Virus record (IMG/VR): IMGVR_UViG_3300045988_154339
DNA: 59,570 nt
Reading direction: 5' to 3' (one strand)
From: a virus
In this document: piece by piece, positions 41,183 to 45,379 of the stretch
How positions within the stretch are numbered: position 1 is the stretch's first letter
Layout of the letters: every line of letters begins with the position of its first letter
Made by a program: the position numbers and the translations under genes
The notes under the pieces: model-generated
Told to the model about the DNA's origin: nothing
Database searches by the model: none
The model's input: only the letters and a program-made list of their open reading frames with translations

Positions 41183-42034
41183 TTATTTTATGAGATACTC
41201 GAACTCTTCTTTTGTAAGCCCATCGTATTCTTCGTATGATGTGAACGGGTCGACGTAACCTCGATGACAGTTGTTGACTTTTTGAGGTGTTTCCCATGAC
41301 CCGCCATACCAAGTGCTCAACACTTGCTCCATCATGTACGGCACAGGCACCATCATGCCTTCAAACGGCATTGCAGCTGTCTTTTCGTACCACGACTTTT
41401 TCAAGATGATGAGCTCTCGGTCGTATCGCCAAAACGCCATATTTGCGATGTGTTCAGAGTGTTCGTTTCGTTCATGAACGTCTTTCAAAACCGAATTGAG
41501 CATGTCCCAGTAATAGCCGGGAATTCGAGGTTCGACGTCCTGTCCCGTATGCTTTGCGACAGTCTTGATGAAACCTGCGACATCTTCACGAACTTGTAAC
41601 AACTCAGGCGCATTGTCAAGCGGAAAGATGTCGAGAAACATGCCTTTGTTGTGCGAGCCTCGATACTCACGTTCTGTCAATGCCGTCGTGAATTTGTCAC
41701 GAAGTTTTGCATGAACTTCAAAGCAGTTATCAGTTCTCGCAGTCTGAAAGAAGTAAGCCGCGCCAAAGATTTGCGGGTCTCGTTCTGCGATGTTGAGCAA
41801 TCTTGTGTAGTCTTCACGAGGCATTGTAACGTCAACGTCGTCGTCCCACGGTATCATGTGACCGTCTCGAACTGTTCCGAGCAATGTTCCGCCGTCGACC
41901 CACCATTTGAGATTGTACTTTGCACAAACTTCTGCGAACGCTTTGAGCAATCCCACACAAACTTGTTTGACTTGCTCAAGTCGCATTTCAACGGGCATCC
42001 GTTTTTTGAGTAACTCAATCTTCTGTCGTATCAT
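41183..42034 (-). CDS. licD: LicD-family phosphotransferase (phosphocholine transferase-like)
   Basis: WWVDGGTLLGTVRDGHMIPWDDDVDVTMPREDY is the LicD signature. Confidence 0.75.
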   Translation of the reverse strand: MIRQKIELLKKRMPVEMRLEQVKQVCVGLLKAFAEVCAKYNLKWWVDGGTLLGTVRDGHMIPWDDDVDVTMPREDYTRLLNIAERDPQIFGAAYFFQTARTDNCFEVHAKLRDKFTTALTEREYRGSHNKGMFLDIFPLDNAPELLQVREDVAGFIKTVAKHTGQDVEPRIPGYYWDMLNSVLKDVHERNEHSEHIANMAFWRYDRELIILKKSWYEKTAAMPFEGMMVPVPYMMEQVLSTWYGGSWETPQKVNNCHRGYVDPFTSYEEYDGLTKEEFEYLIK

Positions 42035-43598
42035 TTTCGGCCTCCTCGTCTATGTTGAGTTTTGCGTTATGTCGTTTTAATTCAATAAAGAACGAAATCA
42101 CGATGCATATCATAATGAACGTTAGCAAAAACGCACCGATTATCGCCATTGATTGAAGCAAATGATTTGTGCCATCTAAGAATATGAGCGCAATCGGCAA
42201 CACTAAGAATAACAGCGCCCAGTAAATCTTTACTGGCTTTGACGGCGATGCGTCAATGTCAAGCTTTTTGTACGAGAATGAACTCACAACATCTGTCAAA
42301 GCATCGAATGTCGAAGCGTAAAGCCCGAACATTGTGAGCAGGAGCAAAGGAAGTGCGATGTACCAGAAGCCCGAACCTTTCGAACAAATCAACTCGATGA
42401 TGCATTGTGCAGGTGACGCGCCCGAAGCAATCATTCCTGCAAAGTCAAAACCCGATGCTTGAGCACTCATTCCGAAACCACCGAAAATCGTAAAGCTTGC
42501 AAACGTTCCGAGCAAACCTGCTGTACCGCCTTGTAATAACACTTGCTTGATTGTGCGACCTTTCGAGATTTTCGCAATGAAAAATGGAGTCGCAACGCAC
42601 CAAGCAATCCAGTACGCCCAGTAGAATACCGTCCAGTCTTGCACAAATCCACCCGATACACGAGCAGGGTCTGTCCAAGTTGCCATGCTGAAGAAGTTTA
42701 TGAACATGTTTCCGATGCCCTGAATGCCATTCTCAAGAATGAACAACGGGTTGCCCATAATGAAGAACAACGCCAAGAGTAATGAGAACAAAATCGTTGT
42801 TATCTTTGCGACAATCGAGATGCCTTTATGCCCGACCAACACTGCGGCTGTGTAGATGATTGCGATGATGCAAAGTATTACGACTGAGATTACTGGCGAT
42901 GATGCAATGCCGAAAAGTTTGCAAACAATAGCAGTCATAAGTGGTGTTGTTACACTAAACGTCGTCGATGTTCCAAGCAACAGTCCAACTACCGCTATAA
43001 CGTTTGTTGTTGATTTGAGTCCGTTTGCAAGTTTCGGTCGACCTGTTTTTTCGAAAATCGGAAGACACATTTGACCCATGCCCTGTGCATCACGTTTTTT
43101 GCGAGTGAAGAACATAAATGCGTATATAACAGCCAACACAAGATAGAACGCCCAAGGAATGAGTCCCCAATGAAAATACGTGTAAGTCGATGAGTTGAGC
43201 ATCTGGTCTGTCGAACCGGCACCTGTAAGTGCGTTGTTTGAGTTGAAGTAATACGTCCACTCATGCATTGCATAGAACAAAATGTCCGCAGCCATAGTCG
43301 ATGTAAAAATCAGAATGCCGTACGTTCCGAGCTTCATCGGTTTGTCTGTCTCTTTACCGAGACGAATTTTGCCGACCTTTGAGAATGCGAGATAGAGTAA
43401 AAGCAAAAATGCAGCAAGCCCGAACAGCAAATAGTACCAGCCAAACTTGTCGCCGATAAATGTACGAACTGCCATAATGATAGTCTCAGCTTGTGTTGCA
43501 AAGATTGTGATGAGCACACCCAATGTAATTACGATTATTGCCGGAATGAACAAGATTGTCTTGTCAAACTTGGCGAGTCGTTCACGAATTTTTTTCAT
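42015..43598 (-). CDS. BCCT-family (betaine/carnitine/choline) transporter
   Basis: ORF 42015..43826. The ATG at 43598 lies 6 nt after AAGGAGA. About 12 TM helices. BCCT signature [31 protein letters not shown]. Confidence 0.8.
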   Translation of the reverse strand: [527 protein letters not shown]

Positions 43599-44337
43599 TG
43601 TCATTCTCCTTATTTGCTTGCTTATAGTCAAGCACTGTGTCGATTTCAAGCAATGCAGGTTTGTCTGCAACGTATGCACAAAGGTCGAATTTATCGTCAT
43701 ACAACACACAAGGTATGTTGTCAATGTAACATTGCATATTCTTACCGTCTTTTGTCGCTTCCTTTGCGAGTTCATAAAGTTTTGCCATGTCCATAGGCGT
43801 CCAGAACGATAATGAACGTAAGACATAACCAGATTTGTACGAACCGTCTGTTATGACACGATGAATTTTACGTCTTGCTGCGCCAGAGATATTTGCGACC
43901 CACTCTTTTGCGCAACATTCAGCGTCTTCGCAATATTCGAGATAATACCCAGAACGTTCGATTTTCGTTTCGATTACACTGTCATCTTCGATGTATAAGT
44001 CTGCATCGAGCATAACTGTGCCATACGACTTTGAACAACGAGAAAGTCCTTCATAGCCCTTAATGAACGAGATGATGTTGTTCGTACAAAACCACTTCTT
44101 GTTGTACACAAGCGTGACGCCGTACTTTTCGTTCAGATAATCGAACATCCAGTACTTGTAGCCTGTAACGACATAAATATCGTCGATGCCTTTAGCCTGA
44201 AGCTGTTCGATAAGACGTTCAATCAACACTTCGCCTCGTACTTTGCACAAAGGCTTGGGTTGTTCGTCAGTCAGGTTTTCAAGTCGTTTACCACGACCTG
44301 CCGCAAGAATTATTGCGGACTTGATTTCATGTACCAT
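43582..44337 (-). CDS. licC: LicC-like nucleotidyltransferase (CTP:phosphocholine cytidylyltransferase-like)
   Basis: N-terminal AIILAAGRGKRL...QPKPL loop. 251 aa. Confidence 0.75.
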   Translation of the reverse strand: MVHEIKSAIILAAGRGKRLENLTDEQPKPLCKVRGEVLIERLIEQLQAKGIDDIYVVTGYKYWMFDYLNEKYGVTLVYNKKWFCTNNIISFIKGYEGLSRCSKSYGTVMLDADLYIEDDSVIETKIERSGYYLEYCEDAECCAKEWVANISGAARRKIHRVITDGSYKSGYVLRSLSFWTPMDMAKLYELAKEATKDGKNMQCYIDNIPCVLYDDKFDLCAYVADKPALLEIDTVLDYKQANKENDNEKNS

Positions 44338-44367
44338 TTAAGGTCCTCCTTACTTTATCTTAGTTCT

Positions 44368-44396
44368 ATTATATCACAATTTTTCTCAAAAGTAAA
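44368..44396 (-). promoter_or_regulatory. Promoter cassette P5 (minus strand), drives licC-BCCT-licD
   Basis: TTTACT (44391-44396), 17 nt, TGTGATATAAT (-10 at 44368-44373). Confidence 0.75.
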
Positions 44397-44450
44397 CTAC
44401 TTTGATACAACTTTTCAAAAATATTTTCAAGAACTTGAATGAAGAGATAG

Positions 44451-44472
44451 CAAAAGCCCGAGCTTATCGGGC
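44451..44472 (-). terminator. Rho-independent terminator after the kinase gene
   Basis: GCCCGA-GCTTA-TCGGGC, followed on the minus strand by TTTTGC. Confidence 0.6.
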
Positions 44473-44479
44473 AATTGCA

Positions 44480-45379
44480 TTATTCTTTGTTTTTGATATA
44501 TCGCAGCACGATGTCCGAGTATTTGTCGGCGTACTCAAATTGATTGTTTGTGTAGTCGCCGTATGTTACGCCACAATTTTGCTTGTAAATGCACCAGTTA
44601 TACCAGAGCATTCCTGCAAGAGCGGCGTACCCGTAAATCTTATGTCGAGTATCGTTGTCGATGTCTTTGCGAAAGTAGTTGCTCATGATTGTGTTGAACT
44701 GTTCTCTGCTGTAGTTGCAATATGTCGCCCACATTGCAATGTCAACATGCGGGTCTTGCAAACCTGCGTACTCCCAATCAATGAGGGTCGGTATTCCCGA
44801 GCAACCCGCAAAAATCGCATTGTCGGGATTTGCATCAATTTGGCATAAACAACACTTGCGAGGCAGTCGTTCAATCCAAGCAGCGATTTGCAAGCATCGA
44901 TTGTACACCTCTTCATATTTTACTCGAGGAGTGTGATTGCGAATTTTTGCAAGCTCGCGGTATCTATCGATGTTGGCAGTCAACGAGAAGTACTCGACGT
45001 TCGGTCTAAGCTCAAGTTCGTGAAACTCACGAAGTTTTGTCATGCACGCCATAACGTCGGTTGATTTGTTCGGGTCGCAATTACGAGGGTTTGTGATGTA
45101 CTTCGTAATTTTCATGCCGTCAGGCGAGATGAAAACTGTGAGATTGTCGTACTCGAGATTGTGCAAAAAGTTGTAGACACGATACTCTTGCGCACGATTG
45201 ATGAGCTCTTTTGAACCTTTGCCGGGAAGTCGAACTATGTACTTTTTTGACTTTACGTCAATCAAAATACTCGAATTCGTCATACCTCCTGCAGCATCGT
45301 CACATATACAAATATCTTCGGGTAAACACCAAAGTATACTTGATATGAGCTCGTATTGTGATTTAGTAAACGTAGGCAT
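44480..45379 (-). CDS. licA: Choline/ethanolamine kinase-like (APH fold, LicA-like)
   Basis: Catalytic loop CQIDANPDNAIF (Q in place of the usual H). LIDWEYAGLQDPHVDIAMW. Confidence 0.7.
   Translation of the reverse strand: MPTFTKSQYELISSILWCLPEDICICDDAAGGMTNSSILIDVKSKKYIVRLPGKGSKELINRAQEYRVYNFLHNLEYDNLTVFISPDGMKITKYITNPRNCDPNKSTDVMACMTKLREFHELELRPNVEYFSLTANIDRYRELAKIRNHTPRVKYEEVYNRCLQIAAWIERLPRKCCLCQIDANPDNAIFAGCSGIPTLIDWEYAGLQDPHVDIAMWATYCNYSREQFNTIMSNYFRKDIDNDTRHKIYGYAALAGMLWYNWCIYKQNCGVTYGDYTNNQFEYADKYSDIVLRYIKNKE

Follow-up and report, generated by a model that had tools for sequence, protein, structure and literature searches.

The window analysed here, a phage-sized contig of 59,570 bp taken in full from IMG/VR record IMGVR_UViG_3300045988_154339, carries on its minus strand four adjacent genes with all four lic-type functions: permease, kinase, cytidylyltransferase and LicD. 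A LicD protein identical to the one encoded here occurs in a human-gut metagenome (ENA ERZ28659231). The initial annotation had read these genes, from their translations, as a complete CDP-choline pathway. We found the four open reading frames (ORFs) at the positions it had given, with the motifs it had quoted, and profile and PDB searches place their products in the families it had named:

44480..45379, minus strand: licA-like choline kinase, 299 amino acids (Pfam Choline_kinase 50 bits, 3.2e-13; APH 46 bits, 6.4e-12)
43582..44337, minus strand: licC-like CTP:phosphocholine cytidylyltransferase, 251 amino acids (Pfam NTP_transf_3, 48.5 bits; NTP_transferase)
42015..43598, minus strand: BCCT-family transporter, 527 amino acids, putative choline importer (Pfam BCCT 340 bits, 2.4e-101)
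41183..42034, minus strand: licD-family phosphotransferase, 283 amino acids, putative user of CDP-choline (Pfam LicD 136 bits against a cutoff of 22.6, 2.8e-39)

The top PDB match of the kinase is pneumococcal LicA (4R77, E 2.7e-27, residues 10-285). In the active site of the Streptococcus pneumoniae enzyme, Y197, W251, W254 and Y268 hold the quaternary amine of choline (PMC4364537), and this aromatic box is kept in the phage kinase as Y204, W259, W262 and Y276. LicA residues T29, D176, N181, D194 and E196 are also kept (phage T34, D182, N187, D201 and E203); they include the acidic and amide residues of the catalytic loop QIDANPDN (D182, N187), where Gln replaces His before the catalytic Asp, and of LIDWEYAG (D201, E203). 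Two residues on the pocket's rim are unlike those of pneumococcal LicA (V178 is N and E213 is Y in the phage). The top PDB match of the cytidylyltransferase is S. pneumoniae LicC (1JYK, E 1.6e-29), over nearly the full length (residues 7-244 against 27-249), and its N-terminal G-x-G-x-R-L nucleotide loop, AAGRGKRL, aligns with AAGLGTRL of LicC.

The transporter matches the BCCT profile in full (PF02028; residues 15-509 against positions 1-484 of 485). It contains the BCCT signature stretch and about 10 hydrophobic segments, the latter computed on the 603-amino-acid ORF at 42015-43826; the start at 43598 is that of the public gene call. In LicD, the acidic motif W-D-D-D-x-D (W63, D64, D65, D66, D68) is invariant across an alignment of 15 phage and bacterial sequences, and the only significant PDB match, to FKRP (6KAJ, E 4.6e-6), is local and covers the same acidic stretch. 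The protein is acidic (isoelectric point, pI, 5.6) and in this respect not shifted relative to bacterial LicDs. It scores 80 bits against the NCBIfam Mf1 equivalog, whose cutoff is 225, and none of the four proteins, BCCT included, reaches an NCBIfam equivalog.

A sister lineage (L033) carries a DMT permease in place of BCCT, and the only PDB match of this permease is the pneumococcal choline transporter LicB (7B0K, 2.3e-33). The occurrence of two unrelated choline-associated transporter families, BCCT and LicB-type, in one and the same slot speaks for a choline substrate. For BCCT itself, this exchange and the location of its bacterial homologues in lic operons indirectly favour choline over betaine or carnitine.

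Next, we compared the cassette with its cellular counterparts by running a LicC profile against 185,579 genomes of bacteria and archaea, one per species. Among the 80 best bacterial loci retrieved with LicC, 76 show the order licA-licC-BCCT and about 25 have a LicD within 6 kb. They belong mostly to Lachnospiraceae, Oscillospiraceae, Acutalibacteraceae, Ruminococcaceae, Erysipelotrichales and Treponema. Because these loci share the licA-licC-BCCT order, we take the phage cassette to be a captured lic operon of the gut/rumen-anaerobe type. Identity to the closest cellular homologues is 41-53% for LicA, 35-47% for LicC and 44-50% for BCCT. The species scan returned no bacterial LicC above 36% identity, and bacterial LicDs reach at most 36%; we rejected a recent capture from the host on the basis of these two values. 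The phage BCCTs form a group of their own, 56-94% identical among themselves versus at most 50% to bacterial BCCTs. The phage licA and licC genes fall into two groups that are less close to one another than each is to bacterial genes, which suggests repeated renewal from bacterial lic loci.

Families, choline pocket, bacterial operon order and the LicB-type exchange all agree with the pathway first proposed. At the level of sequence, family and substrate are well supported for the import, kinase and cytidylyltransferase steps, and we consider it highly probable that the pathway itself consists of uptake, phosphorylation, CTP activation and LicD-type transfer. The overlap and co-transcription of licD with licC and BCCT suggest that LicD uses CDP-choline as its donor.

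The cassette is a stable part of this phage group. IMG/VR relatives of 54-59 kb share the gene order NDT (nucleoside 2-deoxyribosyltransferase family), HD, ThyX-like, P-loop, licA, licC, BCCT, licD, dut, pol, and the position of the cassette is the same in every window-clade relative recovered, across many independent metagenome samples. The gene for the identical LicD protein has the same neighbours on 20 contigs, which come from different samples and in 15 cases measure 50-200 kb. Since it recurs on these contigs and the IMG/VR relatives are syntenic, the cassette is not a chimeric assembly. All four genes are under purifying selection: pairwise ratios of nonsynonymous to synonymous substitution (dN/dS) are 0.05-0.18 (licA 0.05-0.07, licC 0.11-0.16, licD 0.09-0.18), similar to those of the neighbours. 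Alleles of licC and licD are swapped among relatives, with 78-81% identity where the flanking genes are 93-98% identical, and LicD is among the fastest-diverging products of the block (54-59% identity versus 80-83% for pol and 88-90% for dut).

The lic genes are divided between two transcription units. Adjacent genes overlap by 17 nt (licC/BCCT) and 20 nt (BCCT/licD), and a 36-nt promoter cassette (TTTACT-17-TGnTATAAT; AAAGTAGTTTACTTTT..N..TGTGATATAAT) is present in six minus-strand copies in the window, with 0 expected. The regulatory elements are:

27973-28008, minus strand: promoter cassette copy
33144-33179, minus strand: promoter cassette copy
34845-34880, minus strand: promoter cassette copy
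41120-41155, minus strand: promoter cassette copy upstream of dut
44368-44403, minus strand: promoter cassette copy directly upstream of licC
57398-57433, minus strand: promoter cassette copy
44355..44425, minus strand: 71-nt promoter cassette with palindromic element, serving licC-BCCT-licD (-35 TTTACT, 17 nt, extended -10 TGATATAAT)
44456..44472, minus strand: terminator-like stem-loop and T run right after licA (terminator scan and sequence reading)
45385..45490, minus strand: long hairpin between the P-loop gene and licA (-40.3 kcal/mol, z -7.0, 0/200 shuffles as stable)

The promoter cassette of licC scores 10 of 12, with TG, in a promoter scan and forms a direct repeat with the copy before dut. 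Because one cassette precedes licC and the next precedes dut, licC, BCCT and licD make up one unit. The initial annotation had given three of the lic genes a copy each of the recurrent cassette; in our scan, a single copy serves licC-BCCT-licD. It had also placed licA at the end of the preceding unit, and this agrees with the arrangement: licA follows the P-loop gene after the 106-nt hairpin (inverted-repeat arms 45405-45422 and 45460-45477) and is itself followed by the terminator-like stem-loop. We also observed that the two cassette copies near the lic genes contain a 16-25 nt palindrome around the -35 element that resembles an operator. An Rfam scan matched a tRNA alone, with no riboswitch or known RNA near the lic cassette, and the plus-strand ORFs over the lic region are antisense to strongly supported genes.

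As annotated, the cassette is located between the dUTPase/DNA polymerase genes and a block of nucleotide genes:

38887..41090, minus strand: dUTPase and DNA polymerase, the next unit downstream of licD (Pfam dUTPase 5.9e-27)
45486..45926, minus strand: P-loop (GIDKCGKD) nucleotide-kinase-like gene in the transcription unit of licA, 146 amino acids in the public gene call
45916..46845, minus strand: aberrant ThyX-like gene (Pfam Thy1 2.7e-26)
46842..47797, minus strand: HD (YfbR-like 5'-deoxynucleotidase) and NDT-family genes (Pfam)

The ThyX-like protein had been called aberrant, and it is: its motif reads RQR..A....SQ-MP in place of the canonical RHR..S....SxRY, so that RHR has become RQR and the Arg and Tyr of SxRY are gone throughout the clade. 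In canonical ThyX, the lost Arg binds dUMP and the Tyr lid shields the reactive C5/N5 from solvent (PMC6514825). No full-length homologue of this protein was found in cultured phages, and it shows no detectable similarity to gp130 of phage SP-15, a proposed ThyX-type hydroxymethylase. In the P-loop gene, DGID..GKD is invariant across relatives; the product has no Pfam or PHROG match, and its profile similarity to thymidylate kinase and YorR is insignificant (E 0.4-0.7). The 597-amino-acid polymerase likewise has no Pfam match; aligned over 98% of its length, it shares about 33% identity with proteins annotated as phage DNA polymerases. The combination of NDT, HD and ThyX-like genes is repeated in many viral contigs that have little else in common (L277-L299, L301, L303), some of them 100-330 kb long, and about half of these loci also hold a small P-loop kinase-like gene.

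To compare what occupies the slot between the primase-like gene and dUTPase/polymerase, we gathered relatives with polymerase and LicD as handles. The slot contains:

Window clade, L271, L008, L014, L028/L113 and L110: NDT-HD-ThyX-like-P-loop and licA-licC-BCCT-licD
L033, 5225-9528: ThyX block and Caps_synth glycosyltransferase, licA, licC, LicB-type permease, licD
L022, 10001-12447: ThyX block and licD, SDR, IspD-type cytidylyltransferase
L038 (8636-9508) and L306: ThyX block and a single TAGT-like glycosyltransferase
L030, L031 and L039, ~6800-9600: no ThyX block; P-loop kinase, MazG-like and ThyA-like genes
L034 and L036: nothing

In this phage family, the ThyX-like block is always accompanied by a transferase module, and LicD is missing where the block is missing. 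The licD, SDR and IspD set of L022 resembles the Bcs1/TarIJ or ISPD/FKRP pairing for CDP-ribitol. A second, unrelated gut phage lineage, the L132 group (3227-11222; also MT121964.1, 'Phage DP SC_6_H4_2017'), has ThyA-like, IspD and LicD genes followed directly by a family-A PolA. Before its ThyA-like gene lie a dUTPase_2/MazG-like gene and two paralogous ORFs (329 and 261 amino acids) without a Pfam match; these paralogues seem related to an unannotated ORF adjoining the ThyA-like gene in L031.

On this basis, we propose the following sequence of events. The BCCT transporter would import choline into the infected cell, the LicA-type kinase would convert it to phosphocholine, and the LicC-type enzyme would form CDP-choline. 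LicD would then move phosphocholine from CDP-choline to a hydroxyl group with release of CMP. The acceptor is tentatively placed in the host envelope, where the precursor of a glycopolymer (teichoic-acid-like polymer, polysaccharide or glycolipid) would be modified on a sugar hydroxyl, at the cytoplasmic face of the membrane. The genes would thus represent an auxiliary-metabolic-type cassette, acquired in the distant past from a licA-licC-BCCT(-licD) locus of Bacillota, that maintains or enforces the loading of the wall with phosphocholine while infection proceeds. The phage could gain from this if wall polymers that depend on choline continued to be exported, if lysis depended on choline, or if receptors were masked, which would limit superinfection and the loss of progeny on debris. 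The sister modules may follow the same logic, with LicD, SDR and IspD using a CDP-ribitol-type donor and a glycosyltransferase as the third alternative in the slot.

We take the host envelope as the default acceptor because, to our knowledge, every characterised LicD acts on glycans or glycolipids. Fast divergence of LicD is as expected if the acceptor differs between hosts, and a modifier of the wall would be well served by being expressed early, from the replication arm. Further LicDs in viral contigs are found beside lysis genes at prophage-like contig ends, the classic position for conversion genes. In addition, choline and CDP-ribitol gene sets are both present in the pneumococcal teichoic-acid lic locus (PMC4364537), and the choline and ribitol-type modules of the phages mirror both arms.

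Several observations weigh against an envelope acceptor. The Pfam, PHROG and regular-expression scans of the phage revealed no choline-binding repeats or choline-dependent lysin, and no recognisable endolysin was present in any ORF scanned with Pfam or PHROGs. Known phage modifiers of wall or O-antigen are mostly carried by temperate phages, and this phage apparently is virulent, judging from its gene content: the scanned ORFs of the window, which include all those of at least 200 amino acids, contain no integrase domain (Pfam/PHROG), and the LicC-profile scan of 185,579 species found no prophage copy. The initial annotation had likewise described a phage without lysogeny genes. The cassette is thus unlike a lysogenic-conversion gene (moron), as it lies in the replication arm, inside the nucleotide block, with licA co-transcribed with the ThyX-like and P-loop genes. 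Within the family the transferase module tracks the ThyX-like block, and the L132 lineage has ThyA-like, IspD, LicD and PolA in a row. Finally, the licD and ispD genes of 'Flandersviridae' are situated in the replication module of phages whose Bacteroides hosts have no teichoic acid (PMC8008677).

A second explanation we regard as unlikely though worth serious consideration: the cassette could be the donor and transferase arm of a DNA hypermodification system, in which LicD would esterify a hydroxylated pyrimidine, or a sugar on the base, with phosphocholine. The product of the aberrant ThyX-like protein would be a pyrimidine nucleotide with a hydroxyl group, such as 5-hydroxymethyl-dUMP, and dCMP deaminase and dUTPase would supply the enzyme. 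HD and NDT would deplete the canonical nucleotide, and the P-loop kinase and phage polymerase would insert the modified one. In sister lineages, a polyol phosphate (LicD, SDR and IspD) or a sugar (TAGT-like glycosyltransferase) would be attached to the same handle.

Gene placement speaks for this explanation, since the cassette is flanked by ThyX-like/P-loop kinase genes and dUTPase/polymerase, licA shares the ThyX unit, and the slot alternates between lic, LicD-SDR-IspD and TAGT-like modules and is never empty beside the ThyX-like block. Relatives without the block hold ThyA-like, MazG-like and kinase genes typical of base-replacing phages, the separate L132 lineage has its ThyA-like-IspD-LicD-PolA run, and the ThyX-like protein lacks both the dUMP-binding Arg and the Tyr lid. 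The hypermodification-type neighbours that are present (P-loop gene, HD, NDT, dUTPase, dCMP deaminase and polymerase) are, however, equally compatible with ordinary dTMP supply. The NDT-HD-ThyX-like-kinase block also occurs in many phage lineages without LicD nearby, on contigs of up to 330 kb, and could serve plain dTMP synthesis or salvage. Moreover, a thymidylate synthase (TS) homologue lies within 8 kb of LicD in only 2 of at least 5 viral LicD lineages; a general association of LicD with TS homologues was rejected for this reason.

The TAGT-like slot glycosyltransferase itself is borderline, at 26 bits versus a cutoff of 27.5, and PF20691 (TET-associated DNA glycosyltransferase) is a precomputed match in 11 of its 37 homologues, which favours a DNA target. 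Yet a homologue in the related 56-kb phage L304 (2008-9506) lies in the structural module upstream of the capsid gene, where its neighbours are large tail-/fibre-like ORFs and a gene with collagen repeats, and the enzyme is weakened by this as proof of a DNA target.

Precedents for the chemistry exist. In phage SP-15, the hydroxylated side chain of a uracil bears a phosphodiester outside the DNA backbone, and Thy1-family homologues and teichoic-acid-like genes are present (PMC5977210); RB69 and DLP3 make an arabinosylation donor via a LicC-like nucleotidyltransferase and an APH/choline-kinase-like kinase (PMC13326640); and in DNA-glycosylation clusters from metaviromes, an APH-like kinase stands together with a cytidylyltransferase and a transferase (bioRxiv 10.1101/2023.12.21.572611). 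Against these stand the lack of similarity between the ThyX-like protein and SP-15 gp130 and the acidity of the phage LicD; its charge was considered as a hint of DNA binding and discarded, there being no basic shift at pI 5.6. We know of no LicD-family enzyme that acts on nucleic acid, and we infer that a phosphodiester on the 5-methylene position may be chemically labile.

Restriction-site avoidance gives a further indication. Across the whole window, GATC occurs at 11 sites versus about 209 expected under a Markov model (observed/expected 0.05, z ~-13.7). This 19-fold depletion implies that the phage DNA is still under restriction pressure, which counts against a modified base, although the presumed base-replacing relatives avoid GATC too. 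GGCC (30 versus 82), CTAG (5 versus 26), CGCG and CATG are depleted as well. Relatives differ widely, some having no GATC where 30-80 sites are expected and others showing no avoidance at all, irrespective of the slot module, and because of this variation GATC avoidance does not discriminate as a test of DNA modification.

Addition of phosphocholine to virion components, such as glycosylated capsid, tail or fibre proteins, would alter contact with mucus, immune lectins and bacterial surfaces, and we consider it improbable. The layout of L304 hints at virion protein glycosylation in this family, and LicD acts in the cytoplasm, where virions are assembled. The window itself, on the other hand, contains no collagen-like gene, no glycosyltransferase was found among its scanned ORFs, and the cassette belongs to the early/replication arm, not to the structural arm. 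Nor do we know of any LicD that modifies proteins.

The least probable explanation, to which we give very little weight, is that the kinase and nucleotidyltransferase activate a sugar or another amino-alcohol (AmgK/MurU- or RB69-like), with the transporter carrying a different quaternary amine and LicD transferring a different phospho-group: APH/choline-kinase-like and LicC-like folds do serve sugar activation in RB69 and DLP3 (PMC13326640), no equivalog-level match was obtained and the two rim residues differ from pneumococcal LicA, but the top PDB matches are specifically pneumococcal LicA and LicC (E 1e-27 to 1e-29, near full length), all four aromatic-box residues are conserved, BCCT and LicB-type transporters, both tied to quaternary amines or choline, alternate in the slot, and the bacterial homologues are located in lic operons.

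LicD genes were also observed in further viral contigs. In L115-L123, an IspD and LicD pair is present on contigs of 42-85 kb. In L124-L129 and L181 (100-170 kb), the LicD frame, for example L125 7923-8780, contains four in-frame TGA codons and ends with TAA; at least one TGA appears at a Trp position of another viral LicD, and these contigs probably read TGA as a sense codon. In L144-L175 (35-40 kb; for example L144 1-2972), a different LicD carries a fused NAD-dependent epimerase/SDR-like domain and follows another epimerase-like gene. It lies at the contig end, beside amidase-like, holin-like and tail-fibre-like genes (translations judged by eye), which resembles a site of lysogenic conversion, or neighbouring host DNA.

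Outside the cassette, the window is organised into two arms and several single features:

~0.6-26 kb, plus strand: structural arm with portal, Dit-like, baseplate hub and J, major capsid, neck, tail terminator, DUF3383 sheath-like and tube-like proteins
Minus strand: replication/nucleotide arm with ligase, SNF2-like helicase, large terminase, Mu-F-like, HNH, polymerase and dUTPase, continued by primase-like proteins, AAA_24, PD-(D/E)XK nuclease and dCMP deaminase
29170-29571, minus strand: PemK/MazF-like toxin-family protein (Pfam 2.8e-28)
37542-38072, minus strand: HNH_3-type endonuclease, between the Mu-F-like gene and a small ORF upstream of terminase
54469-54542, minus strand: single tRNA-Thr (TGT)
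56202-56693, minus strand: dCMP deaminase (Pfam 9.2e-26)

The dCMP deaminase and dUTPase together form a complete dUMP-supply set. The HNH_3 gene is present in some near-identical relatives and missing from others (L018, L021), consistent with a mobile homing endonuclease. The sole holin-like signal is a weak, sub-threshold match of a small three-transmembrane protein at 47794-48099, and an HExxH motif, along with weak peptidase matches, is present in the 521-amino-acid protein encoded at 33244-34809. No near-identical DNA was found among GenBank phages, leaving this phage without a cultured relative; its terminase is at most 27% identical to any record. The affinities of the polymerase, at about 33% identity to Paenibacillus, Bacillus and Enterococcus phage polymerases, and the Bacillota-like lic operon homologues are the sole indications of the host. 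The relatives vary in G+C content from 23% to 45%, which implies very different hosts.

If phosphocholine is placed on the wall, a virulent gut phage family would supply both the importer of a nutrient and three enzymes that alter the host surface with it in the lytic cycle. This would be an unusually complete auxiliary pathway and would link choline from the diet to the interplay of phages and bacteria in the human gut. If it is placed on DNA, phosphocholine, with polyol phosphates in the sister lineages, would constitute a chemically new class of DNA modification, zwitterionic and phosphodiester-linked. LicD would then be a new class of DNA-modifying enzyme, and modified pyrimidines would have a source in ThyX homologues as well as in ThyA homologues. 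In either case, phage licD and ispD pairs would be better read as CDP-alcohol (CDP-polyol) phosphotransfer systems than as isoprenoid genes. The slot between primase and dUTPase/polymerase represents a natural experiment in interchangeable tailoring modules that can be tested without culturing the host.

None of the GenBank phage records carries a full lic cassette, and the literature searched contained no report of a phage with the full choline pathway. PHROGs has no family for the kinase, and LicD obtains a weak partial match only. We considered MT836088, the one record with licA-licC-BCCT, as a phage precedent and rejected it as a piece of bacterial chromosome in a virome (MerR, MatE, arabinofuranosidase, sigma-70, AraC, alpha-galactosidase). 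The novelty claimed in the initial annotation is upheld for the full pathway; phage pairs of licD and ispD were already reported in 2021 (PMC8008677).

In that study, Benler et al. described licD and ispD inserted in the replication module of some 'Flandersviridae' gut phages and guessed at functions in teichoic acid modification, superinfection exclusion or an isoprenoid role (PMC8008677). Both those phages and the window combine a LicD with a cytidylyltransferase, in the replication module and in the human gut. The Flandersviridae differ in having no kinase and no transporter, and they belong to another phage family with a Bacteroides host. Their nucleotidyltransferase is of the IspD type, not the LicC type, and the simplest reading of the pair is CDP-polyol, not choline.

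Among cellular systems, lic1/lic2 of S. pneumoniae (licA, licB, licC, tarI, tarJ; licD1, licD2, tacF) and lic1 of Haemophilus influenzae perform the same four steps as the phage cassette. The sister phage module with LicD, SDR and IspD parallels the pneumococcal tarI/tarJ and LicD arm, although phage identity to the pneumococcal locus is only about 30-35%. In contrast to both bacterial systems, the phages use BCCT and not a DMT-family LicB (except in L033), have no flippase or polymer-assembly gene, and carry the pathway embedded among nucleotide-metabolism genes. The licA-licC-BCCT(-licD) operons of gut and rumen Clostridia, Erysipelotrichales and Treponema are closer, sharing gene order and transporter family with the phage and supplying its closest cellular homologues. 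Many of these bacterial loci have a second LicC-like/nucleotidyltransferase match directly upstream of licA, whereas the phage kinase stands alone; the kinase ORF of L001, of 450 amino acids with an N-terminal extension, is likewise unlike it. LicD is usually non-contiguous in the bacterial operons and overlaps BCCT in the phage.

DNA-hypermodification clusters (the arabinosyl-5-hydroxycytosine clusters of RB69/DLP3, the 5-hydroxymethylcytosine-glycosylation gene clusters of metaviromes, and SP-15) share a layout with the window: a TS homologue, a nucleotide kinase, a donor-making kinase and nucleotidyltransferase, a transferase, and an adjacent DNA polymerase. In RB69/DLP3, the LicC-like and choline-kinase-like genes adjoin a TS homologue and a nucleotide kinase (PMC13326640), and the authors of the metavirome study describe their transferases as repurposed lipopolysaccharide and teichoic acid enzymes (bioRxiv 10.1101/2023.12.21.572611). 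SP-15 adds a phosphodiester-linked base group and teichoic-acid-like enzymes in a phage with modified DNA; its gp130 is unlike the ThyX-like protein of the window. The window differs from these clusters in that its transferase is a LicD and not a GT-A or GT-B enzyme, its putative donor is CDP-choline, which needs an imported precursor, and its TS homologue is of the ThyX type.

The animal ISPD (CRPPA) and FKTN/FKRP enzymes and the bacterial Bcs1-type CDP-ribitol systems resemble the LicD and IspD (and SDR) modules of L022 and L132. As the window module is for choline and not a polyol, this comparison bears on the alternative occupants of the slot. Staphylococcus aureus TarP, discussed in bioRxiv 10.1101/2023.12.21.572611, and seroconverting prophages are alike in that phage genes re-decorate host glycopolymers and alter phage susceptibility. 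They are, however, single tailoring enzymes on temperate phages that use host-made donors, whereas the window encodes a whole import-activation-transfer pathway, and neither an integrase nor a prophage copy was found. In conclusion, a gut phage that is apparently virulent carries all of the lic pathway, conserved and linked to nucleotide genes, as a previously undescribed variant of these systems.

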